Shown here: piece after piece, positions 74-57,646 of the stretch
Layout of the letters: every line of letters starts with the position of its first letter
Numbering within the stretch: position 1 is the stretch's first letter
NCBI GenBank assembly: GCA_964629685.1
Contig: CAZVTT010000001.1
Span: forward strand, 17,877 to 81,876
DNA: 64,000 nt
Direction of reading: 5' to 3'
Source of the DNA: an uncultured Gammaproteobacteria bacterium
GTDB lineage: Bacteria; Patescibacteriota; Microgenomatia; UBA10105; UBA927
Position numbers and translations under genes: made by a program
The notes under the pieces: generated by a model
The model's database searches: none
The model's input: only the letters and a program-made list of their open reading frames with translations
Told to the model about the DNA's origin: nothing

Positions 74-1285
74 CTACCGCGGAGGAAATTTAATATGCAC
101 CACCATCGCATTACTGAAGTCAGACCCACCACCGGATCTAGTCGTAACGCCATTTTGCCGTAGCTGCAACGCTAACCAACGAGAAACGTCCGCATCCGTA
201 ATCTCTTTTTGCGTTTTGGCTCGTTCGTTTTTCATATAAAATTTACCACCCTCAACTTCGACGTGTTCGTACCCGAATTGCGCTGTAATATTTAGCGCGG
301 AATCCAAGCCCAGCTTCCGCGAGGCTTTATATAATTTTAGAGTAGTATCTATCCGGTCAATCCAATCTTTTACCTGCATTCCGGTACCCACGGAAGCGAT
401 AAAATCCGCACCTAAATCTGAGGCTGATCGAGACATGGTCTGTAGAAACCGGGTAGGATCGCCCGCAAGCAGAGCCGGGTCGAATCGCCAGGCAGTAAAC
501 AATGTTACCGGTGCTGCTTCTCCCCGTTTCTGTTTATCGCTTAATTGTTGCAGAAATTTAAGTCCGTCAGATTTAACAGTCCTGGCTATATTAAGCGGAA
601 TACCTGCTTCTCGCAGATATTGAAAATTCAGTTTGGCTAATTCCAATGCGGATTGATCAGTATCTACCAGTGTAATAGCTTTGGGTGCCCTATATACATA
701 TGCCACGTTCCCGTCATGTAGTTCTACTCGTCCGTGCATTCCAAAATCAAGTTCGCCTGAACTTGCTCCTAGCCCGACCTGCACCATGGTTTCCGGAGAC
801 TGGGAATATCTTCCTGTGGCACGCAGAATTTCTGTCTGACGGATCGCGTCACCAACCGCCACATCTACCTGCTGAAATGCAAATCGGTTCATCCGGTCTG
901 TATTACCTAAAAATTCCACCAATGCTCCGCTCGTTGCCGGAAGCATCATCTTCACCATCACAGACTGCATTTCATCGTTACTAATCACCGGCCGTGACCG
1001 CACCGTCCCGTCAGCGGCATCCACGACAAACACCCCACGGGAATGAAGATACGCGGCGTTAGCCAAATCTCCCATATCGGATTCCATCAACACTCCCTGC
1101 TGGTATCGACGAAACGCGAAAGTGGCTGTAGCAGCTTCCTGAGCAACTGAACCATTAAAATCCCTGACAGTATGGAGTAAATACAGCATTAACTCTTGAG
1201 GCTCCTGTGGCAGCATCCGTACCTCTGGGTGAGCAAGAATACGCTCACGGACGCCGAGCATGTGTTCAGTCTGATCGTCTGACAT
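74..1285 (-). CDS. hypothetical protein (403 aa), no motif recognised
   Basis: Long uninterrupted ORF with coding-like composition; no catalytic motif recognised by eye. Confidence 0.5.
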   Translation of the reverse strand: MSDDQTEHMLGVRERILAHPEVRMLPQEPQELMLYLLHTVRDFNGSVAQEAATATFAFRRYQQGVLMESDMGDLANAAYLHSRGVFVVDAADGTVRSRPVISNDEMQSVMVKMMLPATSGALVEFLGNTDRMNRFAFQQVDVAVGDAIRQTEILRATGRYSQSPETMVQVGLGASSGELDFGMHGRVELHDGNVAYVYRAPKAITLVDTDQSALELAKLNFQYLREAGIPLNIARTVKSDGLKFLQQLSDKQKRGEAAPVTLFTAWRFDPALLAGDPTRFLQTMSRSASDLGADFIASVGTGMQVKDWIDRIDTTLKLYKASRKLGLDSALNITAQFGYEHVEVEGGKFYMKNERAKTQKEITDADVSRWLALQLRQNGVTTRSGGGSDFSNAMVVHIKFPPR

Positions 1286-2967: not shown

Positions 2968-3044
2968 CCATTATACTACTATAGGTCTTATTTGTCAAGC
3001 AAATCGAGGCTAATTTCTTCTTTTTTAGCTCACAAATCGCGAGT

Positions 3045-4808
3045 TTAGTGGTTACGGTGATATATCACATACGTTGGAAATTCATGCGAAATGGTAAAAA
3101 AACGCTCCATACCGATCCATGAGGGAGTTAAATCCACTAACCCAAAATACGGCAGCAACTGCCATTTTCGTTTCAGGATTACCCACTCTGCCCCACTATC
3201 CGCAATGATCTGAGCCATGGCACCATAATCCACCGGATATGTTCCCAACTGCAATTGCGAAAATGACAACGGATTTGTGCGTCCGGTTACGGCAAAAAAC
3301 GGGTCTTCTCCGGGCAAAAATGCTACCGGCTCATTTTTAGGAATGGTGGCATCGGCATACCGGAAAAGCTCTTCCATCTCCGTAATCCAGGTCCCATTTA
3401 CCGTTAAACCCCGTAATTTCCCGTCACGTGCAGTCTGCCTGGCGCCGTCCAGAGATACATACCGCTGGGCATCCTTCCGCAGTAAAGACATAGCCAGAAT
3501 TCCACAGAGGAACAAACTCCCCAACACGACGAAAACTGTCGTTTTCGTCGTCGGAAATATCCGTCTAAAGTCATGCACCGCAATAGCTGTCAAAATAACG
3601 AACAAAGGCCAAAGACCATAGGCAGAACCGACGACATGGTGCGATAAGTAGGTGGCATTAGCCGCCAAAACTATTGGCAACGGAATCAAAAACCCCAACA
3701 TGTGTGCTGATCTGGTAGTAACAAATCTGAACACCATTTGGATTATCGTAACAATATAAACACTGATAAATGCGTAAAGAACAATAATTGTATACAAATG
3801 TATTTCCGGAGCACGAATTACCAATAAATACATATAATGAATGACTACCGCCATCATCGCCAGAAAAATTCCCAATGACAGTATCCGGATTTTATGGGTA
3901 GCGGAAGGACCTGCATCGGAGCCGGCCATTTTTTTGACCAGCTCCAAACTCACTGCCCCCAGTAAAAATGCGGCAAAATGCAGTGAACCGTCCCGCAGTA
4001 AAGAAAAATACCGCAAATACTCTCCACGTATGGCTTTCAATTCAATTTCAGGCGATTTCATAACCCGGGGAAATTCGATAGTTTGCCGGATAAACGGCAT
4101 AAACGCCTGCTGACTAATCAACCATCCCACAAAAGCTGCCAACGTCAGTACGACCCCTCCGAAAAACACGATAAATAGCACGAAATCGTTTCGTTTTCGC
4201 CACCGGAGTGCCCATACCCCAACTACGGAAAAAAATCCCGCCAGGTATGCTGCACCGGTATTCTGCTTAAAAAAGACCGGCACGGTCGCCATCACGCCCA
4301 GCGGGACATACCACCACCACCGTCGTGGTCTGTCCGTAATCACCAAAAACAACCATATATGAAACACAATCGCTGCCACACACCAGATGTCATACAACGG
4401 AAACGGATAAATCACATGCCCGGTAAATAACAGTGGTAACAATAATGCGCCCTGAATGATCGGATCTTTTATAAATCGTTTAATGACAAAAAATGTGGTT
4501 ATGACGGTAAAAAACGACACGAACATACACGCAAACACTAAAGGTATATGCGAGTAGCCGCCATAAAGTTTCATTACGAAAGCTGTCAACAGATACGTTC
4601 CCGGAGTAAGTACCAGGAAAAAATCCCGATATGGCATCTGACCAAGAAAAATTCTGTATGCGTTTTCCACCTGATATGCATAATCTACCAGCGGCGTTGC
4701 AGTAAGCGATTGCCAGGCTGTCATCACGCCGGCAGCTAATCCCAGAACAAGTGTCAGTAAAAACGATTTAGTCGGACGGAGATGACGAAATGGTGTTGCG
4801 GACAGCAT
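3045..4808 (-). CDS. polytopic membrane protein, GT-C fold (ArnT/PMT-like) glycosyltransferase-like
   Basis: 587 aa with at least 10 predicted TM helices. Arg/Asp-containing first loop (YRDFF) and a large periplasmic C-terminal domain, typical of GT39/GT83-type enzymes. Assignment by architecture only. Confidence 0.4.
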   Translation of the reverse strand: MLSATPFRHLRPTKSFLLTLVLGLAAGVMTAWQSLTATPLVDYAYQVENAYRIFLGQMPYRDFFLVLTPGTYLLTAFVMKLYGGYSHIPLVFACMFVSFFTVITTFFVIKRFIKDPIIQGALLLPLLFTGHVIYPFPLYDIWCVAAIVFHIWLFLVITDRPRRWWWYVPLGVMATVPVFFKQNTGAAYLAGFFSVVGVWALRWRKRNDFVLFIVFFGGVVLTLAAFVGWLISQQAFMPFIRQTIEFPRVMKSPEIELKAIRGEYLRYFSLLRDGSLHFAAFLLGAVSLELVKKMAGSDAGPSATHKIRILSLGIFLAMMAVVIHYMYLLVIRAPEIHLYTIIVLYAFISVYIVTIIQMVFRFVTTRSAHMLGFLIPLPIVLAANATYLSHHVVGSAYGLWPLFVILTAIAVHDFRRIFPTTKTTVFVVLGSLFLCGILAMSLLRKDAQRYVSLDGARQTARDGKLRGLTVNGTWITEMEELFRYADATIPKNEPVAFLPGEDPFFAVTGRTNPLSFSQLQLGTYPVDYGAMAQIIADSGAEWVILKRKWQLLPYFGLVDLTPSWIGMERFFTISHEFPTYVIYHRNH

Positions 4809-4836
4809 AGCTCTTTCCGTAAAACGAACCTGCGGG

Positions 4837-6078
4837 TCAATATTTTACTTTTTTCGGAATAGGTATATTTTGATTTCGGCAAATCATGGCTACATTCCAG
4901 CACAACAAGCCCAGAATCGGAAATGCCTTGAGTATCATCTGATCAAATCGTTCCAACGGTTTATACAACCACTCCCACGACTCCGCCTCTTTAATAATAG
5001 ACTTCCAATACCGCTCTTTATTGGGGTTCCGACGCTGAACTACTGCCATTATTACAAAAATTACAAGCGTAGAAAGCCAAAACCACCGAATTTCGGCATG
5101 GGGAAATTCACGTTTAAATACGTCTATATCAGCCATGGTAAACGGCCGTTCGTCATGTGACCGGACGCTCGTTGCAATCCGCCGGTACACATTAATAATC
5201 GGATTGTAATGCAGCGGTTCCCACAGCACGAGTACTCCGGTCGGTTTTAAATATTTGTGTATTCCTGCCAGTGTCTTGGCTATATCGACATGATGAAATA
5301 CATTCCCGACATACACAATATCAAAGGAAGTTCCCGAAGGGAATTTCAATTGTTCCACCGAAGCCTGAACCGTACGGACCGAAACGTTGTAACGTTTGGC
5401 TAATCGCTGGACTACATCCAGCATGGGTTTTGATAAATCTACCGACGTCACCTTTGCACCCCGTAACGCAAAATAGACACTGGCTTCGCCCAGACCACAC
5501 CCTAAATCCAACACCCGCTTTCCCCGGATATCGGGCAACGACGCGTGAATAAAGCGTAACTCGGGCACGGTACAGACAGTATTACTGCGGACCACATCAA
5601 TGGTTTTCACATCAATACCTTCCGCCCAAACATCGGAAAGTTTTTCCTCATCTTCTATCTTGGCAATGGCCTGCTGACTAACAACCGTCGTGCTGCGGGA
5701 ACTCAGGGGAATATCCGCCAACCGGGCAATTGCACGAATCGTCTGTAAAAAAAATGCATCATTCTGTTTTCTGATGGCGTCTTCTCCAAACGGTAAATGC
5801 GTTTTTGCCTGTGCATCCCGGAATACTTCAGTATCTCCTCTGGTGTAATAGCGTACCGACTTCAGCGAAAATGTTGTAACGCCCCGTTTTGGGTATGTCC
5901 ATTTCACCCGGATAGTCTCACTATCAACGGGCGTAAACACGAATGAGTTCACAAATTTCTCCCAAACCTTATAGCGCTTTGGATCTATCTGCCTTTCCCG
6001 TTCTGCTAATCCTTTGGCTTGCAAGAGCAGGTGGTGAATAGCACTTTCAAAATATGGTTTCTTCGGCATAATTGTCAT
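4837..6078 (-). CDS. class I SAM-dependent methyltransferase with C-terminal membrane anchor
   Basis: Motif I VLDLGCGLGEASV. Acidic post-I SVDLS. Motif II/III IVYVGNVFHH...LKPTGVLVL. Hydrophobic helix near the C-terminus. Confidence 0.7.
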   Translation of the reverse strand: MTIMPKKPYFESAIHHLLLQAKGLAERERQIDPKRYKVWEKFVNSFVFTPVDSETIRVKWTYPKRGVTTFSLKSVRYYTRGDTEVFRDAQAKTHLPFGEDAIRKQNDAFFLQTIRAIARLADIPLSSRSTTVVSQQAIAKIEDEEKLSDVWAEGIDVKTIDVVRSNTVCTVPELRFIHASLPDIRGKRVLDLGCGLGEASVYFALRGAKVTSVDLSKPMLDVVQRLAKRYNVSVRTVQASVEQLKFPSGTSFDIVYVGNVFHHVDIAKTLAGIHKYLKPTGVLVLWEPLHYNPIINVYRRIATSVRSHDERPFTMADIDVFKREFPHAEIRWFWLSTLVIFVIMAVVQRRNPNKERYWKSIIKEAESWEWLYKPLERFDQMILKAFPILGLLCWNVAMICRNQNIPIPKKVKY

Positions 6079-6111
6079 TCTGAACTTGATTCAGAATCTC
6101 TCGTATAATTC

Positions 6112-7419
6112 TTATCCTTTATTTTTCTTTCTATTTTTACCATTTGTTGCTGACTTACCGTGTCCGGTTGCTTTGCGGAATCGTTGTTTCTTTTCGGTTT
6201 CCGCGAGGACAGTTTCCGCTGTAGAAACTAATTGTTCATACGTTAGGGGCCACGGTTTAGGGGGCGGCTTAGTTAAAAACGTCTGTATCCGCTGCAATTT
6301 AGCTTTCATAAACCGCATGGATATCGACATTTCCGGGTAACTCCCGTACATACACCCATGACAACCGCTGGTTATGGCGTACACGTCTTTTCTGAATACC
6401 TTGTCATAGTAGGCCTGGGGAAAATCATCCGCATATGTGTGCACCGACCGGGGTAACCGCCAGTCACAACACGGGGCAAAATCCCCGTTCGGCAGTACCG
6501 CAAAGTACAAATTAGGACTGTCACATACACCTTTATTTTTCCCTCTCCAGGTTGTCGGTTCATTCCGCACAAATCGCTTTATATCGTCCAGATACTGATC
6601 GCTGTCATACAGTAAAAATCCTGCTTCCCGCAGCGACCTCACGTTTTCAATTACCTCGTCAATTCCGGCAAATTCGTCCGGACGGAATCGTAAAGACTGG
6701 TCATATGTCCGAAAACCCAGCGGTTGAAAATGATCGGACACATGAATAGGCACCAGCGAGGTATACCATCCCACTCGGGTTCCGAAACGGATCACCCCTT
6801 CTATATCACGTAAATTATCCCGTTGCAGTACGCATCCGAACGATGCAAAGCTGTTTTCTTTAGGAAGATATTTAGAAAATATAGCGACAGACGCAAGCGC
6901 CCTGTTCCAGGAACGGACAAACCCGCCGTTAATTTCATCCTGAACCTGTGGTTTTAACGAATCAAGCGATATGGAAATATCATGACCGCCGTATTCTATG
7001 GATTTATGAATCTGTTCCTCTGTTGCCAGACCGTTTGTTTGCATGCGTACATGTATCCTCCGGGATTCAAACTCCCGGATTATTTCCGGCAAGTCCTGAC
7101 GTGTGTACGGTTCCCCACCGGTAAGCAACACCATTGCCACCCCAAGCTTGGCAAAATTTTCCGCTATACGTTTAATTTCTTCCAGGGTACACTCGCGCAT
7201 ATCCGCATTCGCGTAACGGATATTGCATTGTTTGCAGGTTAAATTACATCGCGCGGTGATATAAAACTGTACATACACCGGACGATCCTGTAATAACGAA
7301 GAACGGAGCAGCGTTCCCTGCGAAGTAAATGAAAAAAATCCTGACGGCCTCATAAGAACTGACTCATCATAAGCCGTACGGTTCACCTTGTAAACCCTGT
7401 TTATCCGCCTCCATTTCAC
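6112..7419 (-). CDS. radical SAM protein with SPASM/twitch-like C-terminal Cys cluster
   Basis: CNLTCKQC (Cx3Cx2C) followed by the GGEP glycine-rich motif. C-terminal CDSPNLYFAVLPNGDFAPCCDW...CHGCMYGSY auxiliary cluster cysteines. Confidence 0.75.
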   Translation of the reverse strand: MKWRRINRVYKVNRTAYDESVLMRPSGFFSFTSQGTLLRSSLLQDRPVYVQFYITARCNLTCKQCNIRYANADMRECTLEEIKRIAENFAKLGVAMVLLTGGEPYTRQDLPEIIREFESRRIHVRMQTNGLATEEQIHKSIEYGGHDISISLDSLKPQVQDEINGGFVRSWNRALASVAIFSKYLPKENSFASFGCVLQRDNLRDIEGVIRFGTRVGWYTSLVPIHVSDHFQPLGFRTYDQSLRFRPDEFAGIDEVIENVRSLREAGFLLYDSDQYLDDIKRFVRNEPTTWRGKNKGVCDSPNLYFAVLPNGDFAPCCDWRLPRSVHTYADDFPQAYYDKVFRKDVYAITSGCHGCMYGSYPEMSISMRFMKAKLQRIQTFLTKPPPKPWPLTYEQLVSTAETVLAETEKKQRFRKATGHGKSATNGKNRKKNKG

Positions 7420-7501
7420 AAAAAAGGCCCCGCATATACCGCATTGGTATAATTGGAGCCCTATTATCCGATAATATAAGAAAGTACGTAACCGCCCCTT
7501 A

Positions 7502-7582
7502 TTATCCCGATCCTTTTCGTAAAGACCGGAATGAAGAGAGGCGGTATACGGATTGGATTGGACATAAGGTCCACCCCTCTTC
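7502..7582 (-). promoter_or_regulatory. conserved structured element, copy 2 (stem GAAGAGGGGTGG/CCGCCTCTCTTC with G.U wobbles), upstream of the radical SAM gene
   Basis: Blocks TTATCCCGATCCTTTT and AAAGACCGGAATGAAGAGAGGCGG are 22/23 identical to copy 1. The partner strand CCACCCCTCTTC pairs only as minus-strand RNA (A-U to G.U and C-G to U.G changes). Confidence 0.4.
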
Positions 7583-7590
7583 GCAACGAA

Positions 7591-7938
7591 TCATGGAAAA
7601 ATCGGTAAAGCTTTATACGCAATTTGCCGTGCGTAAAAAAGGCACAGCAATCCGGTGGTAACCACAAAACCGATCGTGATACCGCTCCGGTAGGTTACGG
7701 GAAGCAGAAATTTTAACATCAAACCGAACGCAAGAACCACAAATCCGATTCCGCCTATGCGGATTGCCGCCGCAAAATATGGTGGCATTGGTGCCAGCCG
7801 GTGCAATATCGCCCGCAGTTCGCCGCCAAACAGCCGAATAAACAGCAAGGCAAACATGGCACCGATAAATATACCTCCTAACTGTTCAGTTCGGGGTGTT
7901 AATGGTATCCGGTAGAACTGTACAAACGCCAGCATCAT
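7591..7938 (-). CDS. small membrane protein, hypothetical
   Basis: 115 aa ORF with 3-4 hydrophobic helices; overlaps the next gene by 4 bp. Confidence 0.4.
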   Translation of the reverse strand: MMLAFVQFYRIPLTPRTEQLGGIFIGAMFALLFIRLFGGELRAILHRLAPMPPYFAAAIRIGGIGFVVLAFGLMLKFLLPVTYRSGITIGFVVTTGLLCLFYARQIAYKALPIFP

Positions 7939-8384
7939 GGATGTTTTTCCTTCCTGCCGAATTTATTGGCATACATCTGCATGACCAAGCCGATATTCAT
8001 CACGCCGCCGAACACGAGTCCGGTCAGAAACGAATTCGTCACGCTGAACAACATGAATATACCGATGACCGATATAACCATCCCGAATAACGACAAAGCT
8101 CCCCAGATTTCCTCAGAAAACCATGACTTGGCAATCCAACACATCCGAAGCGATAACGTAGCATAAACATAGGTTGCCACCATCGCCAGGACTACACCCG
8201 ACAATTGAGCGCTGTCTTTCAGGAGAAAAAATGCCACTACGAGGAATATCAACACAATGATGCGTTCACGCGGATAAAGGAATGTCCACAACGGACGTGC
8301 TGGCACGGATTGGGCGTGTTTTCGCATGATTCGATCCTCACTTTCAAGGTGCGACGTATTGTACGTCACGTTACAATCGGACAA
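7935..8384 (-). CDS. small membrane protein, hypothetical
   Basis: 149 aa ORF with 4 hydrophobic helices; 4-bp start/stop overlap with the downstream gene. Confidence 0.4.
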   Translation of the reverse strand: MSDCNVTYNTSHLESEDRIMRKHAQSVPARPLWTFLYPRERIIVLIFLVVAFFLLKDSAQLSGVVLAMVATYVYATLSLRMCWIAKSWFSEEIWGALSLFGMVISVIGIFMLFSVTNSFLTGLVFGGVMNIGLVMQMYANKFGRKEKHP

Positions 8385-8415
8385 TGGAGCTATTATACCC
8401 TATAAAACCGATATA

Positions 8416-9309
8416 TCACCGCTGCGAAATGGATTGATACAGAGAGAACATAACCGGTAACGATGAAGGCTGGGAAAATACGTGTACCAGCCGTAAACGA
8501 TCTTCGGGAGCAATCTGAGATACGTACTCCGCACGGGCATCCTGCAGCATCGTTAACGCCATAGGTGCAGTAGCACGAACATCGGCATAGGTAAGAGACG
8601 AAGCATCCTCACACAACGACTGCATCGCGTCCAACTCGCCTGTCTGCCGCAAGGCCGCCGTCATAGTACTTTCACAAGCATGTGTTAAATCGCTTTGCAC
8701 ATCAATAATGTCGTCAAACAGCTGCAAATTCGCCCCATACAGATATGCCAGTCTTCCTACCTGAAGTATTTCCCCATGATCCCGTTCCAGGAACAAGGCA
8801 GCCATTTGTGCGGAAGTAGCGGTCAAATATCCCGCTGCGTTTTCCCTCCAGGCCAACACTTCCGGAAATGGAAGCGTTTGCGCAGAATATCCGAACCGCG
8901 CCTGTAAATCATATTGTCGATACCGTTCAGCATTAACCAAAGAAAAAACTGCCAGTTTATACTCACGGCGTATCGGTGAGTCACAGACGGTCTGAATAAA
9001 TGAAGAAATAAGCGGTGACACGCTTTCATGCGTTTTAACCTCGCGGGGTGTTGGTAAACGCTCAAGCGAATCGGCCACATCATCATAAACTTGAAATAAA
9101 TTCACAAACCGACTCATCGTTTCCGGTAACCGGGTAGCCGAAACCGCAGTACGAGAAAGCCCCCACCTTCCCCGCAGCGCGTATAACCAAAAAGATGCCT
9201 GACGTTTCATCCGAAAGTCAGGGATATTCTCTTGGTAATTTCGCTTTTCCAGCATACCCATTACGCCGCCATATCCCATTGAGATTGCATTTTTTAATTC
9301 CGATAGCAT
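8416..9309 (-). CDS. isoprenoid (class I terpenoid) synthase-fold protein, putative
   Basis: Two Asp-rich motifs, YDDVAD (about residue 75) and FDDIIDVQSD (about residue 200), about 125 aa apart. This spacing matches polyprenyl/squalene-phytoene synthases. Otherwise unrecognised. Confidence 0.3.
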   Translation of the reverse strand: MLSELKNAISMGYGGVMGMLEKRNYQENIPDFRMKRQASFWLYALRGRWGLSRTAVSATRLPETMSRFVNLFQVYDDVADSLERLPTPREVKTHESVSPLISSFIQTVCDSPIRREYKLAVFSLVNAERYRQYDLQARFGYSAQTLPFPEVLAWRENAAGYLTATSAQMAALFLERDHGEILQVGRLAYLYGANLQLFDDIIDVQSDLTHACESTMTAALRQTGELDAMQSLCEDASSLTYADVRATAPMALTMLQDARAEYVSQIAPEDRLRLVHVFSQPSSLPVMFSLYQSISQR

Positions 9310-9606: not shown

Positions 9607-12558
9607 ATGCCGACAGAAAACCCAACTCCCGGTCAGGTAGATCAAGCCGAAACTAACCGCATCCTCAGTGATTTGGAAACCGTTACCGTACGTGACCAAC
9701 CATTAGACGCCAACGCACCGGAATATAAAACGCTCACCGGATTTTCCAATCCCCTAGTGCTCCAAGCAGCAGAAGCCGTACGCAAAGCCGTTATTGTGGA
9801 GAATACGGTATTTCTCCCGGATACGGATCACGATCAGGAAGACGTCAGATTTCAGACCCGCATGGTAGCGGCCGATGCACAAGCGTCCAGCGGCGTATTC
9901 TTATCATTCAAACGGTGGGCTCTGACGACCACTATTGCCCGTGCTACCAAACTTCATACCGGAGATAAATCATGGAGGAAGCTCATGGTGGAGGGTACCA
10001 ATAGTGCCATAAACAGAATTAAATCCATCAAAGAAACCGTCACCAGCCCAGCACATCCGTTTATTACGGAGTGGCGAAACAGACTCATGGCATGGCCGAA
10101 TATTATGATGGGAGATCCGGAAAAACGATTATTAGGCGCAGCAGGTGTATACGGTATTAGAATCCGTACGGAAGATTTAACCATCGGGACATTGGGCACA
10201 CCCTTAAATGAACATATACGATCGGAAACAAGCACACCGGCAGGGAGAGCCAGACTTCTTACATCTGCCACGCTTGCGGAAGCCACTGCCTTCCGCGGAA
10301 AAGCCAGCACGGTACTTTCTGCGGCAAAAGAATTTGTACGGTATTATGAAGGTGCCAATAAAACGAATCCAAAGGTCAGAATTATCTATCAACCTGCCAA
10401 TGGCAATGAACCACCGGCCAGATGGGTGCTGTCTACGAATAAAACATTCACCCAGGATACACGGGTACTCGAGGAATTTATCCGGTTCTGCGATATGCGT
10501 GGTGAAAATCCGCTCAGTGTTGCTACCGTCGACCGTACGGGTAATGGTACAGGGGAAATATTCGATAGTTTTTATTCCCCGGACGGTATACGGGTTAATT
10601 TTTACGACACAGATGGCCTTTCCTCTGTCCCCCTTGTCCGGAACGGCCAACTTATTTCGGATGCCGAACTCTATCATATATTCCTCAATCAGGAAAAAAA
10701 CGCACCTGACGCTCATCAGAAAGCACTCCGATCAGTTACCGCAAATGCATTTGATCGACTGGCATGGCTTCCCATGAATAACCCTATCGGACGGGCTGCA
10801 CTGCAACGATTTATAAAAAGCCCGATTTTTGCACCGACCCGCGATAGTTTTCTTTCCGTCAAACTGAGACAAAACAGACAGGATGAAAATATAGGCGAAT
10901 CCATGCATGTATTCGGTACTATCCGAGCCGTTACCATAGACGGAAATACCGGCGAATATATAAGTTACAATGCCCACGGTCAAAATGATGCCGGACCGGT
11001 ATTTGATGAGTATGTGCATCCGGGAGAAAACGCAGGAATTCTCTTTGACTTCGCCGCAATTGGAGATCGGCTTTTCGGTCTCGATGAGCCGGATGTACCG
11101 CTTCCGGTCAAAAAACTTTTCAGACATACCCAGGCTGATACGGTTTGTCGTCAGGTATTGGGTACAGAAAAACTGGATAACCCTACCCGGGTTATTGCTC
11201 TTGAACCGCTGGTGGTTGATACGAAAGCGCCGTTAACCGATGCCAGAAAAGCAGTAGATCAGGTTACCCGCAGACTCGTACGGGGAACCCGCACCGCGGA
11301 CACGACGGCATTATCAGGAGCAGAATTGAAAGCCATACAAAAATTCAGCCGGATTGGGGTAAATCCCCGGCTCACTATCGAACTAGCTGTATTGCAGACG
11401 TTATCGGAAATTGATGCGGAAATTGCTGACGTAGATCGCCCAATCACCCCCTGTCACCATGATCTTGTCAGTCATGAAGCGGCACTCCGTTTAGCCGTAT
11501 TACCTCAGGTCATCGGATATCAGCAAGAACAAGAACGGACAATTATGGCTATTCTCAACGGTGCCGATACCGCTAAAACGGTGGACCAACTACGTTCGTA
11601 TGTCGAAACGATAGTTGTGGAAACACACACCATGCGGCGGGATTTTGAACGTGCAGACCGCCCGTTACTCGTACATCAGGTTCTACGTGAAATATTCACT
11701 ACCAACGGGAAGGTACACGAAGCAGCATACAAAGATGTGAATTCAGAGAAATGGATGCAGGCAAAACAACGTATCTACCTTCGATATAATCACGTACCGG
11801 AAGGCGGGACCTGGACTGAACAACGGATTATGGATGGCAGGGGCCGCGCCTGGACCTACCGCAACGGCGATCTCGCCATACATGCCACGGATGGACAACT
11901 CGATCAGATCGTCGCCATTTGCATTGGCGGAGATCACGGAACTCATACCATGAGTAATTCGCGCGGAGAGCGGACAAGCGCAATTGCCAAAGCCGGTCAA
12001 ATGGTCTATCCGGAAGCAGCGAGTTTGTACACCGATACGGCGGCAATGTTTTCAGACGCCAGTTCCAAGGGCGACGGTTTACTGGAGTTAACTAACACCG
12101 GCGCGGATGGTCCGTACCGGATTGTTACGGCTATAAACCGCACAACGGACAGCACGGGAGGAGATGCGGCCAAATTATGTATGAGTATCCGCAGGGATGT
12201 TATCGTAAACCTACTGAACAAACGAGGCATATCCCAACCGAATGAAACGCAGATACAGCAGACTGCCGCCGAAATACGGTTACGGATAGATCGTGCCTAT
12301 AAAGATGTTCAACTCTTGTTCGCCACCTATGCGGAACTCTTTGATGACAGTGGAAAACCAAAAGACGCTGCCAAAACGAAGGAGATTCTGGCAGCTGCAA
12401 AAGTAGCAGGACAGACATACAGCGAACCTTATGCAGACCGCAACATCCCCCGCTTCCATGAACCGATTACTGCAACGCCGGTAGATACTGCCCGGGTAAA
12501 TTTGTATCGGATTTTTACCTCCGGATGGCGCGGACTCGGAAAAAAACCGAAACAGTAA
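9607..12558 (+). CDS. large hypothetical protein (983 aa), no recognisable domain
   Basis: Uninterrupted 2.95 kb ORF. AGGA 11 nt upstream of the ATG. No TM helix or signal peptide obvious. 3' end is 6 bp from the convergent radA stop. Confidence 0.6.
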   Translation: MPTENPTPGQVDQAETNRILSDLETVTVRDQPLDANAPEYKTLTGFSNPLVLQAAEAVRKAVIVENTVFLPDTDHDQEDVRFQTRMVAADAQASSGVFLSFKRWALTTTIARATKLHTGDKSWRKLMVEGTNSAINRIKSIKETVTSPAHPFITEWRNRLMAWPNIMMGDPEKRLLGAAGVYGIRIRTEDLTIGTLGTPLNEHIRSETSTPAGRARLLTSATLAEATAFRGKASTVLSAAKEFVRYYEGANKTNPKVRIIYQPANGNEPPARWVLSTNKTFTQDTRVLEEFIRFCDMRGENPLSVATVDRTGNGTGEIFDSFYSPDGIRVNFYDTDGLSSVPLVRNGQLISDAELYHIFLNQEKNAPDAHQKALRSVTANAFDRLAWLPMNNPIGRAALQRFIKSPIFAPTRDSFLSVKLRQNRQDENIGESMHVFGTIRAVTIDGNTGEYISYNAHGQNDAGPVFDEYVHPGENAGILFDFAAIGDRLFGLDEPDVPLPVKKLFRHTQADTVCRQVLGTEKLDNPTRVIALEPLVVDTKAPLTDARKAVDQVTRRLVRGTRTADTTALSGAELKAIQKFSRIGVNPRLTIELAVLQTLSEIDAEIADVDRPITPCHHDLVSHEAALRLAVLPQVIGYQQEQERTIMAILNGADTAKTVDQLRSYVETIVVETHTMRRDFERADRPLLVHQVLREIFTTNGKVHEAAYKDVNSEKWMQAKQRIYLRYNHVPEGGTWTEQRIMDGRGRAWTYRNGDLAIHATDGQLDQIVAICIGGDHGTHTMSNSRGERTSAIAKAGQMVYPEAASLYTDTAAMFSDASSKGDGLLELTNTGADGPYRIVTAINRTTDSTGGDAAKLCMSIRRDVIVNLLNKRGISQPNETQIQQTAAEIRLRIDRAYKDVQLLFATYAELFDDSGKPKDAAKTKEILAAAKVAGQTYSEPYADRNIPRFHEPITATPVDTARVNLYRIFTSGWRGLGKKPKQ

Positions 12559-18332: not shown

Positions 18333-19439
18333 ATGAAGATAGTATCCGGATTCATAACCGTACTTATATCACTGGGAATCGCTCTTGTTATTTCTTTCGC
18401 TATCATGGAATGGTATTTATCCCGGGTGCAGTACCAGCCACCGCCAATTGCCTGGAAATGGATCATTGGAGATACCACTCAACCCACTGAGTTTGACACC
18501 GATAATACTCTGATCTTCCGAACCAAAAAAAATATTCCCGGTGAAACCAACGACATGGGATTCAGGATGGATAATGACAACATACATAGTACGAATCTTA
18601 TTCTTGCAATCGGTGATTCATTTACCTACGGAGACTTCGTCACCAGAGAACACGCGTATCCCCAACAGTTAGCAGATATTCTGGCGTCAGAGGGATACGC
18701 ATATACTGTAGTAAATGCCGGTATAAACAGTTTTGGTCCGGATCAGGAATTGGAACTAACGAGAAATCTTGTAACCGTCGATCATATCGAACCTCAAATA
18801 GTCATTTGGCAACTGTTTTTGAATGATTTATCGGATACGGTTAAACATCCGTTATATATACCTCTCGGAAGAACAATGATAAAAATTCCTGCCTGGATCA
18901 ACAGTACCTATATCACAAAAAAAATCACCGGTATAATCCCCCGTTATCTCGCTCAATATAAAACCACGAGTTACCTGATTTACCAATTCAGTCAGTTAAA
19001 TACTGCATCATTTGCCGTGGGAAGTAATAAAAAATTATATCAGCAGAAAAAAATCAGCTTTCTTTTGCAGGAAATGGATACCTTATCACGAAATAATAAT
19101 TTTAAAGTTATTATCGTTCTGGCACCCCACCGGGGGGTATTACGACAAAATCCCGAAGCTACGGCTGAGTATCTATTTATGAAAAAACTACTTGAAGAAC
19201 AAACAGATTTTCCCGTTATCGACATGCATCAATATATAGCACAAATATCTGAAGCATCCGTCTCTGCGGGAATATCACCGAATCAGCCACTATTTAATTC
19301 CGATGAAGTTGAATCTCCCAATTACCCCTGGAAGCATTTAACAAAAGAAGGAAATACTCTACTGGCGCAAACTGTTTTTACCCAATTATTGCGGCATAAT
19401 CTGCTACAAAAAAACCGCTCCACGGTTCCCCAGCCTTGA
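18333..19439 (+). CDS. SGNH/GDSL-type hydrolase, membrane-anchored (paralog 1)
   Basis: Block I AIGDSFTYGDF with N-terminal TM anchor. The ORF track starts at TTG 18297; ATG 18333 (MKIVSGF...) is the more likely start. Confidence 0.6.
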   Translation: MKIVSGFITVLISLGIALVISFAIMEWYLSRVQYQPPPIAWKWIIGDTTQPTEFDTDNTLIFRTKKNIPGETNDMGFRMDNDNIHSTNLILAIGDSFTYGDFVTREHAYPQQLADILASEGYAYTVVNAGINSFGPDQELELTRNLVTVDHIEPQIVIWQLFLNDLSDTVKHPLYIPLGRTMIKIPAWINSTYITKKITGIIPRYLAQYKTTSYLIYQFSQLNTASFAVGSNKKLYQQKKISFLLQEMDTLSRNNNFKVIIVLAPHRGVLRQNPEATAEYLFMKKLLEEQTDFPVIDMHQYIAQISEASVSAGISPNQPLFNSDEVESPNYPWKHLTKEGNTLLAQTVFTQLLRHNLLQKNRSTVPQP

Positions 19440-19553
19440 GTTATCTTCCCGGTTCCTTGCGAAACAGGTATTGTCACCGCTAACGCGTTTCACTTCTGAG
19501 TTCGGAATGGGATCAGGTGGGACCACGTCGCTCCAAAGACTGGAGAACCCTAA
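19438..19553 (-). rRNA. rrf: 5S ribosomal RNA
   Basis: Minus-strand sequence GGTCCCACCTGATCCCATTCCGAACTCAGAAGTGAAACGCG matches the universal 5S core; boundaries approximate. Confidence 0.8.
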
Positions 19554-19705
19554 AGCGGTTCTCCTATCAATACACACAAACTCAACGATTACATTATATA
19601 TAAAAAGTAATTACACGTAAGGGATAATCCAATAGATTCCGTTACAACCAAAATTTCACCAGGAATCAAGAGTCCTTCACCAAATAATTGATTCAGGATT
19701 CCTTT

Positions 19706-22980
<3,275 letters not shown>

Positions 22981-23275
22981 AACAAAGGATCTGTCCTTCG
23001 CTTACGCTCAGGACCGAACCCTTGATCTTCCGGCGAAAAATTGTGCTGTAAGGGTGATCCATATGGATTACCCCTTACGATGCAACTACTTTTCAAAAAA
23101 ATTGAATTCACAAAAAAATCTACAATACAAGGAATTTCACCCTATTGTAGACAATCGTTGAGTTGTTAAAGTACTGCACTCACAATAATTGTTAAGTCGT
23201 TACATGGTTAAACTGTTAGCTGTCTTGCAACAGGTTAGCAATTTAGCCATTTAACAAAATAACAATTAATCCGTG

Positions 23276-23348
23276 TGGACCTGGGCGGAGTCGAACCGCC
23301 TACCTCTTCATTGCAAATGAAGCGTTCAACCAGGTAAACTTCAGGCCC
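23276..23348 (-). tRNA. tRNA-Ala (anticodon TGC)
   Basis: Minus-strand GGGCCTGAAGTTTACCTGGTTGAACGCTTCATTTGCAATGAAGAGGTAGGCGGTTCGACTCCGCCCAGGTCCA. G3:U70 identity pair. Anticodon loop TTTGCAA. T-arm GGTTCGACTCC. CCA not encoded. Confidence 0.9.
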
Positions 23349-56005: not shown

Positions 56006-56824
56006 TTAACCGAATAAATCCTGAACGAGTTGACGAATCTGTTGTTCAAACTGCTTAATGGGTATTGGTTTCGATTTCGGCTTACCGTACCAGTGTCCAC
56101 CCATAATATACCCAGGCACGGACCGGGGAGCTTTACCGGTAAAAAGAATAGAGAACGTCACTTTGGTGTAAGTAGAAACCAACTTGAGTTTCCGTTCGTG
56201 CCGAAACCGTCGCAACGAAAACACATACAATGTCTCCCGCAACATATCCATGGGAATCCCCAAAGCAAAAATCCGGTTACTGAAATCATAATCCTCTCCC
56301 CAGGCGAGAGATTCATCGTATCCCTTTACCGTTGTAAAGACATCACGACGTACGCATGCCAGCGGACCGGGCGCTACCGGACGTTTAATCCTGATTGCTC
56401 CTTCATACAGCAAATTAGCCAACAATGTCACAATAGCATCACCGTTTTCCTCAGTATCCGGACGACACCAGGTCGTAAATAACTTAGGATGTTTAGCCCG
56501 GATAAAATGATCAAGTCTATCAAAAAAATACGGTAACAGAACGCTGTCGGCATCGATAAACAGTAACCATTCCCCACTGGCACGGGTTGCGCCTAAATTA
56601 CGCTGTTTCGGTAAGCCGGGCGGATTACTATCGATTATCTGAAGTCCGGGAAGCTTCGGTATGAATGTTTTGGCCAACTTCACCGTTTGATCCTTCGAGT
56701 GGCCATCCACTACAATAACCTCTACGTCCTTACGTTTTATGACAGCCAAAGAATGTAAAAGTCTTGGTAAAAACTTTTCCTCGTTCAGGGTAGGAATAAT
56801 CACTGAATACCGTATTTTTTTCAT
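56006..56824 (-). CDS. family 2 glycosyltransferase
   Basis: YSVIIPTLNEE...VIVVDGHSKDQT. Start set at the internal Met (MKKIRY) because the extended ORF overlaps the divergent gene. Confidence 0.65.
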   Translation of the reverse strand: MKKIRYSVIIPTLNEEKFLPRLLHSLAVIKRKDVEVIVVDGHSKDQTVKLAKTFIPKLPGLQIIDSNPPGLPKQRNLGATRASGEWLLFIDADSVLLPYFFDRLDHFIRAKHPKLFTTWCRPDTEENGDAIVTLLANLLYEGAIRIKRPVAPGPLACVRRDVFTTVKGYDESLAWGEDYDFSNRIFALGIPMDMLRETLYVFSLRRFRHERKLKLVSTYTKVTFSILFTGKAPRSVPGYIMGGHWYGKPKSKPIPIKQFEQQIRQLVQDLFG

Positions 56825-56890
56825 AGGTGGATGCATTATACGGCATTCTATGGCCCAGCGCCCAGCTTCGTATATAATAAACCAAACAAT

Positions 56891-57646
56891 ATGACACAAA
56901 AACCTAAAATATCCGTTGTAATCCCGGCATATAACGAAGAGCATTATCTTCCTACGTGTTTGGAGAGTCTAAAAAAGCAAACATTTACCGATTTCGAAAT
57001 AGTGGTAGTAGACAACAACTCGACGGATAAAACAGCCGACATAGCACGTGCATTCGGCGCCCGCGTGGTGAAGGAAACAATACAGGGAATGACACCGGCA
57101 CGGGAGCGGGGGTTCCGTGAAGCCAGGGCAGATATAATAGCAAGGACGGACGCCGACTCAACCGTCTATCCTGATTGGCTTGAACAAATAGATAAAGCCT
57201 TTCATAAATACCCGCAAGCCGTGGCTGTTACCGGATCTTTCCGTTCTCCTGACCCCGATGTACCGAATCGTTTTTTTGAGTATTATATCCGGCTTTATAC
57301 CCGTTTTACCCGGATGCTAACCGGTCACATGCATTTGCACGGACCGAATATGGCGCTCAGAAAATCTGCCTGGGAAAAAATACATGTCCATATGGATGAT
57401 ACGTTGGTACATGAAGATGTAGATCTCGCCTGTCATCTGGCCGAGGTAGGAGAAATAATCTTTGTACCGGAAATAATCACCACGTACTCATTACGAAGAC
57501 TTAAACAACGGTTTTGGTTTACGCTTGGAGAATATTTTGTCCGCTATATCCGTACCATCCGACTACACGGCCATGCCCACAGTCTGATAAGTATCAGGCG
57601 GCGTCTAAGTATGACTTCACGTGCGCGACGGCCAACTCGGGAGTAA
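56891..57646 (+). CDS. family 2 glycosyltransferase
   Basis: ISVVIPAYNEE...VVVDNNSTDKT; DAD motif. The track start 56831 is possible, but ATG 56891 fits the GT2 N-terminus. Confidence 0.7.
   Translation: MTQKPKISVVIPAYNEEHYLPTCLESLKKQTFTDFEIVVVDNNSTDKTADIARAFGARVVKETIQGMTPARERGFREARADIIARTDADSTVYPDWLEQIDKAFHKYPQAVAVTGSFRSPDPDVPNRFFEYYIRLYTRFTRMLTGHMHLHGPNMALRKSAWEKIHVHMDDTLVHEDVDLACHLAEVGEIIFVPEIITTYSLRRLKQRFWFTLGEYFVRYIRTIRLHGHAHSLISIRRRLSMTSRARRPTRE

Follow-up and report, generated by a model that had tools for sequence, protein, structure and literature searches.

What do six adjacent genes for a glycosyltransferase, a methyltransferase, a radical SAM enzyme, two small membrane proteins and an isoprenoid-synthase-like protein do, and do they all belong to one pathway? 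These genes occupy positions 3045-9309 of the window, by which we mean the whole 64-kb stretch of DNA analysed here. An initial annotation had read them as a membrane-associated lipid or glycan tailoring pathway. Our analysis supports the glycan-tailoring part of this reading, most likely in the form of a module that acts through polyprenyl-phosphate-linked sugars, while the grouping of all six genes into a single pathway does not hold. All six open reading frames are present on the minus strand at the coordinates given, and public data contain homologues of every one. Instead of the several 4-bp overlaps noted before, a single pair of genes overlaps in this way (7935-7938), and the remaining intergenic gaps measure 28, 33, 31-88 and 237 nt.

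Comparison with related genomes identifies a five-gene island of 5.4 kb (window 3037-8415) that comprises the radical SAM, methyltransferase and GT-C trio together with the genes for the two small membrane proteins. In one relative (L092), all five genes are found together. In a closer relative (L085), one unrelated gene replaces the island, and identity to the window is 95% for the flanking RadA protein and 92% for the flanking PIN/TRAM protein. Presence of the island thus differs between close relatives, and the island behaves as a block. Its three-gene core consists of a radical SAM enzyme with a twitch-like cysteine set, a membrane-anchored class I methyltransferase and a GT-C-fold glycosyltransferase.

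The sixth gene (8416-9309, minus strand) lies outside the island and encodes a protein of 297 residues with two conserved Asp-rich motifs (D76/D77/D80 and D199/D200/D203/D207), here called the DD protein. The terpenoid-synthase fold expected from these motifs is borne out by modelling: the AF2 model (pLDDT 91.3) is predicted to have a trans-prenyl synthase fold, and each of the 50 listed Foldseek matches either is an isoprenoid prenyl-chain synthase or has one as its core (for example, 1wy0, E 1.2e-4, TM 0.54). Similarly to the trans-isoprenyl diphosphate synthases of PF00348 (FPPS, GGPPS), the modelled protein is all-helical with two Asp-rich motifs, and its QxxDDxxDxxxD motif aligns with their second motif, the only region in which the family profile matches prenyl synthases in the PDB (3nf2, E 9e-6). 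It differs from them in its PF00348 score (21.6 bits, under the gathering score of 27), in the tiny size of its family (2 matches among 5.8 billion proteins; about 11 representatives among 1.84 billion) and in lacking, as judged by eye, an evident RRG after the first motif, an evident KT motif and, behind the second motif, evident GK...K basic residues.

In a six-gene pathway, the DD protein would make a special polyprenyl carrier or lipid that the radical SAM enzyme and the methyltransferase modify and the GT-C enzyme uses. Adjacency, common direction and the predicted isoprenoid-synthase fold all fit this idea, as does the location of the DD gene in a more divergent stretch (65% identity) between RadA and PIN/TRAM (92-95%). 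However, none of the 81 radical SAM loci that we compared besides the window's own (82 in all) carries a DD homologue, L085 carries the DD gene but not the island, a more distant homologue (P0147) is surrounded, in an unrelated setting, by hydrolase and toxin-antitoxin genes, and the upstream genes are set apart from the radical SAM gene by a promoter-like site and a hairpin that resembles a terminator. Because co-occurrence fails, the six-gene pathway is largely refuted, and we consider it improbable. Given its absence from the other loci, its island-free occurrence in L085 and the context of P0147, the DD protein shows no link to the module and does not belong to it; it is an independent, highly divergent enzyme of predicted isoprenoid-synthase fold at the edge of a variable region.

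The hairpin belongs to a non-coding leader of 237 nt (7354-7590, minus strand) that runs from the small-protein genes to the radical SAM gene, and it agrees with the structured RNA-like element previously proposed at this place. The leader contains an 11-bp helix followed by the terminator-like hairpin with a U-run at its end, folds with an MFE of -80.9 kcal/mol (z = -3.4) and, in a scan for promoters and terminators, includes the promoter-like site at 7394..7366. It matches no family in Rfam and is conserved in L092, where one both-sides change preserves a pair of the terminator stem, a weak sign from a comparison of two sequences. Because the leader ends in a terminator-like hairpin and U-run, the six genes are divided into two or more transcription units.

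The radical SAM gene (6112-7353, minus strand) encodes 413 residues from a conserved ATG at 7353. The listed frame extends to a GTG at 7419, but homologues begin at the ATG and the DNA upstream of it aligns as non-coding, identifying the ATG as the true start. Assignment to the radical SAM superfamily is firm (PF04055, E 3.3e-24, above the gathering score). Identity of the protein to its homologues is 47-80% across more than 10 phyla and 64-79% to 14 aligned members from several phyla, and C36/C40/C43 and C277/C296/C331/C334 are invariant in 79/79 sequences. The first three form the CX3CX2C core shared with the twitch enzymes MoaA and BtrN; the last four lie in a CX12GX4CC...CX2C pattern, whose CX12GX4C...CX2C set suffices for one auxiliary cluster. 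Thus, of the SPASM/twitch-type cluster initially suggested, the twitch-like part stands, whereas the full SPASM motif is incomplete and no SPASM profile matches; a match to HpnH/DUF3463 was likewise not found. MoaA is the top sequence match and the best NCBIfam match (79.6 bits versus a cut-off of 284), but the enzyme scores far under every curated family cut-off, and its similarity to twitch enzymes covers only about the N-terminal 140 residues; for the C-terminal half, sequence searches of the PDB and Pfam gave no relative. Among solved structures, the closest relatives are MoaA, GDGT-MAS and BlsE, enzymes with small-molecule or lipid substrates; SkfB and PqqE, which modify peptides, score lower. 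By sequence, the enzyme therefore resembles small-molecule enzymes.

Many SPASM/twitch radical SAM enzymes mature peptides, and the protein has weak NCBIfam matches to peptide maturases, so that the module might instead mature a peptide or protein (RiPP-like or by radical protein modification) with a small open reading frame as substrate. We hold this to be highly improbable: no SPASM profile matches, the sole small open reading frames encode conserved polytopic membrane proteins, the 82 loci show no recurrent gene that resembles a precursor, and the conserved context is glycan synthesis.

The methyltransferase gene (4837-6078, minus strand) encodes 413 residues, of which 190-285 match PF08241 (E 2e-22). 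Towards the C-terminus, a pair of hydrophobic segments at about 328-346 and 382-400 is conserved across 60 family members, in agreement with the earlier description of a membrane-anchored class I enzyme, and their conservation fits a membrane-bound substrate. The N-terminal domain (about residues 1-175) is family-specific and found no relative in a PDB sequence search; in NCBIfam, no equivalog scores above its cut-off. An anchored methyltransferase would also suit modification of a membrane lipid in place of a sugar, for instance by Tes- or GDGT-MAS-like C-C bond formation or lipid methylation, and the N-terminal part of the radical SAM enzyme weakly matches both Tes (50 bits) and GDGT-MAS (7tol, E 8e-11). 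These matches, however, are confined to the generic radical SAM core and far under cut-offs (50 versus 450 bits), and the conserved neighbours of the pair are glycosyltransferases and sugar enzymes, with lipid-synthesis genes not among them, making a lipid substrate a poor candidate in our estimation.

The third core gene (3045-4808, minus strand) encodes a polytopic membrane protein of 587 residues with a C-terminal alpha/beta domain, for which Pfam, NCBIfam and PDB sequence searches all gave no match. Its family (c17) has 24 homologues, in which D42, Y45, D62, Y139-D140 and K181-Q182 are invariant. The AF2 model (pLDDT 89.2, pTM 0.91) supports the GT-C-type glycosyltransferase proposed initially: all 14 PDB matches found by Foldseek at E <= 0.001 are GT-C enzymes, namely STT3, AglB, DPY19, ArnT and AftA (E 1e-6 to 6e-4), with modest TM-scores of 0.32-0.49 to the solved structures. 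To our knowledge, every GT-C enzyme characterised so far takes its sugar from a lipid-linked donor. The family adjoins the radical SAM-methyltransferase pair in nine loci; its gene sits between the two in L097 and right after the radical SAM gene, before GtrB and the methyltransferase gene, in L080. Family members are also found without the pair (P0142 and P0127, within the 5 kb viewed on each side).

Across the 81 other loci, a methyltransferase homologue is near the radical SAM gene in 72: in 63, it follows immediately downstream in the same orientation, and in nine more it is close by; five of the nine loci without it end at a contig edge. The two genes are contiguous or overlapping in contigs of Methylovulum, Opitutaceae and Patescibacteria. 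They are a conserved unit, followed here by the GT-C-fold membrane protein. A full-length polyprenyl-phosphate glycosyltransferase of the GtrB/ArnC/PgfS type (GT2) is encoded within 7 kb in 62/81 loci; in 55, it shares the strand and is no more than 1.5 kb away. GtrA-like genes lie between GtrB and the radical SAM gene in 10 loci and adjoin GtrB in one more, and other neighbours match PMT_2, DUF2142 or YfhO, although only 10 of 50 large membrane neighbours match known GT-C Pfam families. The loci lie within surface-polysaccharide gene clusters. Because it adjoins enzymes of lipid-linked sugars in many phyla, the pair probably makes an unusual surface sugar.

Together with the predicted GT-C fold, this tight linkage leads us to favour, with modest confidence, a model based on gene linkage and family knowledge whereby the radical SAM enzyme and the methyltransferase tailor a polyprenyl-phosphate-linked sugar before its transfer by the GT-C enzyme, in a decorated version of three-component extracytoplasmic glycosylation. 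[quoted passage not shown] The 64-kb window has no recognisable flippase and no GtrB-type GT2; because of the latter, we assume that donor synthesis is encoded elsewhere in the genome. The lipid-linked sugar would then be tailored by the cytoplasmic radical SAM enzyme and the membrane-tethered methyltransferase; at an unactivated carbon, the radical enzyme could oxidise, epimerise or deoxygenate the sugar, and methylation could precede or follow this step. The tailored donor would be flipped across the membrane, and the GT-C enzyme would pass the modified sugar to an acceptor in the cell envelope.

Alternatively, the pair might modify a soluble nucleotide-sugar precursor, and GtrB would subsequently load the sugar, already modified, onto polyprenyl phosphate, with the remaining steps unchanged from our favoured model. 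One of the closest solved relatives is BlsE, the sugar-modifying radical SAM enzymes that we know of (DesII, BtrN, AprD4 and BlsE) have soluble substrates, and many of the loci include genes of nucleotide-sugar metabolism (DegT, SDR epimerases and NTP_transferase). Yet a methyltransferase acting on a soluble substrate would have no obvious need of its conserved membrane anchor, the minimal trio in Patescibacteria comes without nucleotide-sugar genes, and the pair often follows GtrB and GtrA in gene order. We therefore regard this alternative as rather unlikely.

Tailoring of a lipid-linked sugar has precedents: the ORF13 epimerase and DprE1/E2 are cytoplasmic and remodel an undecaprenyl-phosphate-linked sugar before flipping (Kelly et al. 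2024, PMC11127046). Among the closest known systems are the three-component GtrA/GtrB/GtrC systems, including those in which auxiliary epimerases serve the addition of pentofuranoses (described in the same paper). The loci described here share with these systems the GT-C-fold final transferase (as predicted), the GtrB-type enzyme, sometimes with GtrA, and the surface-polysaccharide setting. They differ in their auxiliaries, a radical SAM enzyme and a membrane-anchored methyltransferase, a pair for which we found no description among curated families, solved structures or the literature searched; moreover, the window lacks GtrB and GtrA components, and the 587-residue protein matches no GT-C profile of Pfam or NCBIfam.

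Over their full length, the GT2s beside the pair align with PgfS (E 4e-75), their best NCBIfam match, and with ArnC (E 1e-39 to 1e-52). The streptococcal Pgf O-glycosylation machinery (PgfS, PgfM1, PgfE and PgfM2) combines a GtrB-like synthase with an epimerase and large polytopic membrane transferases. The GT2 score remains under the PgfS cut-off (253 versus 500 bits), and the Pgf system has neither a radical SAM enzyme nor a methyltransferase and serves other acceptors in other organisms. BtrN, for its part, functions in a sugar-related context similar to that of the radical SAM enzyme here. In the Arn pathway (ArnC/ArnD/ArnE-F/ArnT), which adds L-Ara4N to lipid A, the sugar is modified while lipid-linked (by ArnD), as we propose here, and ArnT is a GT-C-fold transferase. 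The tailoring enzymes are entirely different, with no homologues of ArnA, ArnB or ArnD here, and the GT2s score under the ArnC equivalog cut-off (135-176 versus 529 bits).

A further likeness to the Arn pathway is the adjacency of genes for two small membrane proteins, reminiscent of ArnE/F; the proteins here have no detectable similarity to any family. We speculate that these two island members may take part in donor flipping or act as accessory subunits. The first (7591-7938, minus strand; 115 residues, about three TM segments) has no family match, no similarity to GtrA and no counterpart in JGI metagenomes, and it is 50% identical to a protein of 116 residues at the same position in L092. 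The second (7935-8327, minus strand; four TM segments), also without a match in family searches, is listed as a frame of 149 residues extending to 8384, but probably starts at the ATG at 8327, giving 130 residues, the same length as in a gene call from the same species; it is 40% identical to an L092 protein of 124 residues that starts at the equivalent of M20.

The radical SAM enzyme (6112-7353, minus strand) and the class I methyltransferase (4837-6078, minus strand; 413 aa) encoded in the window form a conserved unit. In 63 of the 81 other radical SAM loci, the gene immediately downstream on the same strand encodes a homolog of the methyltransferase, and nine more loci have one at another place; of the nine loci with no such homolog, five end at a contig edge. 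Methyltransferase-GT2 fusions of 590-840 aa called in high-GC loci are over-extended ORFs and not genuine. With one genome scanned per species, 118 relatives of the radical SAM enzyme were recovered, and 80 loci were retained at 47-80% identity, the closest named locus (80%) being that of a Candidatus Woesebacteria MAG. This match and the enlarged 23S rRNA described below make it probable that the window derives from a Patescibacteria (CPR) genome. A protein search gave 1,485 sequences at E <= 1e-10, the best 120 of which, as listed, are 64-100% identical, and in an alignment of 14 members drawn from several phyla, column identity averages 70%. The loci occur in more than ten phyla, among them Patescibacteria, Verrucomicrobiota (many Opitutaceae), Alpha-, Beta-, and Gammaproteobacteria (the proteobacterial carriers including Pelagibacter, SAR86, Methylovulum, and Neptuniibacter), Bacteroidota, Planctomycetota, Chloroflexota, Acidobacteriota, Elusimicrobia, Bdellovibrionota, Myxococcota, Chlorobiaceae, and Clostridia. 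Carriers of the pair include CPR bacteria, SAR11, SAR86, Opitutaceae, methanotrophs, Planctomycetota, and Chloroflexota. At 47-80% identity of its radical SAM member across this range, the pair is conserved yet uncharacterized. Its distribution is patchy and falls inside variable polysaccharide loci, a pattern that fits horizontal spread and surface diversification.

Placement of the enzyme in the radical SAM superfamily comes from PF04055 (86.4 bits against a gathering threshold of 29.5; E 3.3e-24) and from C36, C40, and C43 of the CX3CX2C motif, which are invariant in 79 of 79 sequences. C277, C296, C331, and C334 are equally invariant (79/79), and C295 and C174 are kept in 78 and 76 of the 79. 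The initial annotation had seen a SPASM/twitch-type auxiliary Cys cluster here. The full SPASM domain is defined by the seven-Cys motif CX9-15GX4C...CX2CX5CX3C...C, of which the twitch domain is a truncated version with one cluster. The C-terminal pattern of our enzyme is CX12GX4CC...CX2C; lacking the CX5CX3C part, it falls short of a full SPASM motif, and Pfam reports PF04055 and Fer4_12 as the only domains and no SPASM domain. The twitch part of the proposal fits the sequence, and a reasonable reading is that the enzyme carries a single, twitch-like auxiliary cluster. The suggested check against HpnH/DUF3463 gave no support for that family, HpnH being missing from the best 25 of 80 NCBIfam matches and DUF3463 from the Pfam matches.

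None of these 25 NCBIfam matches reaches its own cut-off. The best one listed, MoaA (GTP 3',8-cyclase), scores 79.6 bits where 284 are needed and covers residues 49-165 only, and we rejected this assignment as well as that to Tes/GDGT-MAS (50.3 bits against 450, N-terminal core only). Solved relatives, namely MoaA, GDGT-MAS, and BlsE, match approximately the first 140 residues only (PDB 7tol, E 8e-11, residues 20-130 only), and a sequence search found no PDB relative of the C-terminal half. Similarity to the generic radical SAM core is the one point in favor of a Tes-like role in lipid synthesis, which is at odds with the conserved gene context and which we regard as very improbable. A RiPP role, for which the same generic similarity is the sole basis and which clashes with the same context, seems to us scarcely conceivable. 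The methyltransferase matches PF08241 (80.1 bits against 21.2; E 2e-22; core residues 190-285) and PF13649 (73.6 against 27), with no specific NCBIfam equivalog above cut-off. Together with two hydrophobic C-terminal segments conserved in its family, the PF08241 match bears out its description as a membrane-anchored class I methyltransferase. Its N-terminal domain is family-specific and has no PDB relative that we could find.

In the window, the pair belongs to a replaceable island. All six minus-strand ORFs of the initial annotation were recovered: the 587-aa ORF (3045-4808), the methyltransferase, the radical SAM ORF (listed as 435 aa, 6112-7419), a 115-aa ORF (7591-7938), an ORF listed as 149 aa (7935-8384), and a 297-aa ORF (8416-9309). 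The true start of the radical SAM gene is the ATG at 7353, where the starts of homologs coincide and close to which, at 7355, DNA similarity to L092 begins, while the 149-aa ORF probably starts at the ATG at 8327. None of the six proteins reaches an NCBIfam equivalog cut-off, and the 587-aa, 115-aa, and 149-aa ORFs match no Pfam or NCBIfam family. In L085, a contig with RadA and PIN/TRAM proteins 95% and 92% identical to those of the window, the gene order is RadA, the gene for the 297-aa DDxxD protein (65%), an unrelated 318-aa gene, a small protein (68%), and PIN/TRAM, and its DNA runs collinear with that of the window as far as 8701 and resumes at 3036. The stretch between 3037 and approximately 8415, with its five genes, is therefore a replaceable island. 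A contig of the same species (L088) has the gene order of the window, and L092, whose radical SAM enzyme is 85% identical, encodes a 124-aa protein (40% identical to the 149-aa ORF), a 116-aa protein (50% to the 115-aa ORF), the radical SAM enzyme, the methyltransferase, and the counterpart of the 587-aa protein (44%), followed by the shared downstream small protein, PIN/TRAM, CorA, and an amine oxidase.

The DDxxD gene is not part of this unit. Conserved co-occurrence of all six genes had been predicted, and what we find is that a DDxxD homolog is absent from all 81 other radical SAM loci and that L085 retains the gene where the island is missing. Because synteny shows the DDxxD gene to be independent of the island, and with a lone 4-bp overlap (7935-7938) where several had been claimed and a structured 237-nt gap that contains a terminator-like hairpin, a six-gene operon was rejected. 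Given the failure of the co-occurrence test, the original idea of a six-gene pathway for a lipid carrier is likewise very unlikely. The protein itself was proposed to be isoprenoid-synthase-like, with two DDxxD motifs, and the motifs and the fold hold: its AF2 model (pLDDT 91.3) gives 50 listed Foldseek hits, each an isoprenoid prenyl-chain synthase or a protein that includes such a core (best hit the GGPPS 1wy0, E 1.2e-4, TM 0.54), and D76/D77/D80 and D199/D200/D203 are conserved. PF00348 stays under its threshold (21.6 against 27 bits) and covers only the second DDxxD region (residues 148-207), the family profile aligns with PDB synthases only around this second motif, and PF00494 (squalene/phytoene synthase) does not match the protein, a single remote family member giving a sub-threshold match (E 0.003). 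Of the basic positions known to contact IPP and the allylic diphosphate (GGKRxR, RRG, KT, and GKxxxxD...K), by-eye reading of the alignment finds R46 nearly invariant, with RRG after the first motif, KT, and GK...K not evident. We therefore file the protein as sharing the predicted isoprenoid-synthase fold, its status as a prenyl diphosphate synthase being not proven. It represents a very small and highly divergent family, with two matches in 5.8 billion proteins and 11 representatives in 1.84 billion; a more distant relative (P0147) is surrounded by hydrolase and toxin-antitoxin genes.

ORFs called and clustered in 82 loci, including the window, place the pair beside a polyprenyl-phosphate glycosyltransferase. 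In 62 of the 81 other loci, a full-length GT2 (approximately 315 aa, with a pair of TM helices at its C terminus) is encoded no more than 7 kb away, and in 55 it is found on the same strand at a distance of up to 1.5 kb. Over their whole length, representatives align with PgfS (E 4e-75) and with ArnC (E 1e-39 to 1e-52), with scores under the equivalog cut-offs, and by sequence this GT2 belongs to the GtrB/ArnC class. GtrA-like genes lie between GtrB and the radical SAM gene in ten loci and adjoin GtrB in one further locus. The majority architecture is GtrB-(GtrA)-radical SAM-methyltransferase or radical SAM-methyltransferase-GtrB. In a second architecture, found in the window, L003, L005, and L007 (Patescibacteria-like), L065 and L072 (Chloroflexota), and L017, the pair is accompanied by the family of the 587-aa protein with no adjacent GtrB. 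L083 combines the radical SAM gene with that family and has no methyltransferase homolog in the locus. An Epimerase+adh_short fusion of approximately 564 aa (36/82 loci, e.g., L066 6470-8164), with only generic SDR matches in NCBIfam, and a 307-aa methyltransferase (Methyltransf_23; 25/82, e.g., L037 4492-5415), with no NCBIfam match, often form a pair alongside GtrB-radical SAM-methyltransferase, which points to a more extensive tailoring pathway in many bacteria. An example with GtrA is Neptuniibacter sp. SY11_33 (NZ_CP180543.1, approximately 655-676 kb), where the genes are arranged as Mem_c10-SDR-SDR-MT307-GtrB-GtrA-rSAM-MT. Other recurrent companions are DegT aminotransferases, hexapeptide acetyltransferases, and ABC-transporter ATPases. 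In Opitutaceae and other Verrucomicrobiota, two to three tandem ORFs of approximately 800-1040 aa precede the radical SAM gene (L036 1717-7709; L034 1846-9956; L015, L020, L030); those scanned (two from L036, and L034) have no Pfam match.

The 587-aa protein is, on the evidence of its predicted structure, a GT-C enzyme, as the initial annotation had it. The AF2 model (pLDDT 89.2, pTM 0.91) consists of a helical membrane domain and a C-terminal alpha/beta domain, and all 14 Foldseek PDB hits at E <= 0.001 are GT-C proteins, each at probability 1.00 (STT3, AglB, DPY19, ArnT, and AftA), with modest TM-scores of 0.32-0.49; PMTs and AftD come below these top hits, and transporters appear at chance level only. 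No Pfam, NCBIfam, or PDB sequence match ties it to the described GT-C families PMT, PMT_2, ArnT/GT83, STT3, YfhO, or DUF2142. An identical protein is encoded on an NCBI contig that carries this locus, and 24 homologs at 24-44% identity share invariant D42, Y45, D62, Y139-D140, and K181-Q182; D42 and D62 lie just after TM1 and are inferred to be catalytic. The gene of this GT-C family lies between the radical SAM gene and a short methyltransferase gene in L097 and right after the radical SAM gene, before GtrB and the methyltransferase, in L080. Large polytopic membrane proteins are frequent neighbors of the pair in other loci. Some of these neighbors match PMT_2, DUF2142, DUF6798, or YfhO and most match no Pfam family, only 10 of 50 matching GT-C Pfam families. 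Profile-profile comparison linked the window protein to two other clusters only, by weak collinear signals (68% and 54% probability). That all form one family with the window protein was rejected, as an iterative HMM search never exceeded nine loci. We also rejected an obligate association of this family with the pair, since two of three extra homologs (P0142, P0127) have no radical SAM gene in the 5 kb shown per side. L095 (1-8391) carries five ORFs of approximately 543-578 aa on both strands, with no Pfam match, beside DegT, acetyltransferase, and epimerase genes; one is homologous to the window protein, and the 5 kb shown per side contain no radical SAM gene.

No GtrB-type enzyme was found in the 64-kb window. 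Two GT2 ORFs, 56006-56944 (minus strand) and 56831-57646 (plus strand), share, as listed, 114 nt in a head-to-head overlap. TIGR04283 is the NCBIfam family that they match best, at a score below its cut-off. Neither is of the GtrB type, so a role as donor synthase for the island is improbable. Neither small membrane protein is a recognizable GtrA, SMR, or MATE-type flippase or matches a Pfam or NCBIfam family, assignment to GtrA was rejected (hhalign probability up to 3%), and a metagenome scan yielded no relatives of the 115-aa protein. By position only, the two are candidates for the flippase.

The donors of GT-C enzymes are linked to polyprenyl-(di)phosphate and are used on the outer side of the membrane, polyprenyl-phosphate-monosaccharides are made on its inner side by GtrB/ArnC enzymes, and radical SAM enzymes depend on cytoplasmic SAM and a reductant. 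The most economical reading of the gene content is that the pair would serve as a tailoring step in a glycosylation route of the three-component type: the radical SAM enzyme and the membrane-tethered methyltransferase would modify a carrier-bound sugar prior to flipping, and the GT-C enzyme would then transfer the tailored sugar. We speculate that the radical reaction might be a dehydrogenation as in BtrN, a deoxygenation, a C-C bond formation, or an epimerization, the last possibly with a Cys hydrogen donor such as C174. It is tempting, although we hold it only tentatively, to see in the pair an unrecognized radical tailoring step that acts directly on polyprenyl-phosphate-linked sugars and yields a new class of modified surface sugars. 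The two enzymes would then be the fourth and fifth components added to GtrB/GtrA/GT-C systems, and the sugars might be C-methylated, deoxygenated, or epimerized at unactivated carbons. Alternatively, the pair could act on a nucleotide sugar ahead of GtrB; the membrane anchor of the methyltransferase and the minimal trio both oppose this, and we consider it unlikely.

To our knowledge, carrier-bound sugars are remodeled by flavin or NAD oxidoreductases, epimerases, and deformylases, and ArnD is one precedent for modification at this stage. Action of a radical SAM enzyme at the carrier step, if true, would be new chemistry for envelope glycan synthesis. The logic of tailoring the carrier-bound sugar before flipping underlies the auxiliary epimerases described by Kelly et al. 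(PMC11127046) that act on undP-ribofuranose, such auxiliaries being, as these authors note, otherwise unknown in O-antigen side-chain systems. DprE1/E2 offers a further precedent for remodeling of a carrier-linked sugar. The systems of Kelly et al. use epimerases as auxiliaries, whereas the module here has a radical SAM enzyme and a methyltransferase. Gtr-type three-component systems share the GT-C fold with the window, which, in contrast, has no recognizable GtrB or flippase. Searches of Pfam-A, NCBIfam 20.0, and the PDB gave no specific family for the radical SAM enzyme, the N-terminal domain of the methyltransferase, or the GT-C protein, and a full-text literature search, with subscription-only papers outside its coverage, did not find a radical SAM enzyme described with GtrB or GT-C systems. 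Many CPR bacteria live attached to host cells, so the strain-variable island in which the module sits may alter the surface that CPR cells present. Three carriers are isolates (Neptuniibacter sp. SY11_33, Pelagicoccus mobilis KCTC 13126, and Opitutaceae bacterium D2-102), making genetics and glycan analysis feasible.

The structured RNA-like element reported ahead of the radical SAM gene is real as a folded leader of 237 nt (7354-7590, minus strand; z = -3.4). It contains an 11-bp helix (AAGAGGGGUGG/CCGCCUCUCUU), a terminator-like hairpin with a U-run, and a promoter-like site, and it is kept in L092, where, in the two sequences compared, a change on both sides preserves one pair of the terminator stem. 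A permissive Rfam search of the leader gave chance-level matches only and no family, and a known riboswitch was dropped for this reason. The leader could be an attenuator or a riboswitch-like element.

Finally, we note several features around the island. A 983-aa ORF (9607-12558, plus strand) between RadA and the DDxxD gene, with no Pfam or NCBIfam match, is missing in L085 and present in same-species contigs, which makes it the second indel of this variable region. A 403-aa ORF (74-1285, minus strand) has a weak spermine-synthase-like match (E 0.016) and no counterpart in the L085 gene list. In the rRNA region (19428-23348, minus strand), the 23S rRNA, flanked by 5S rRNA and tRNA-Ala, measures 3276 nt against a 2925-nt model, with an insertion of approximately 350 nt; because the whole 64 kb has no 16S rRNA match, the 16S gene may be unlinked. 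Ahead of the probable start of the 149-aa ORF, a block of 67 nt (8334-8400, minus strand) shows 88% conservation in L092, and a perfect sigma-70 consensus (TTGACA-17-TATAAT; 2970-2998, minus strand) upstream of a gene for a 127-aa membrane protein is 97% conserved in the same contig.
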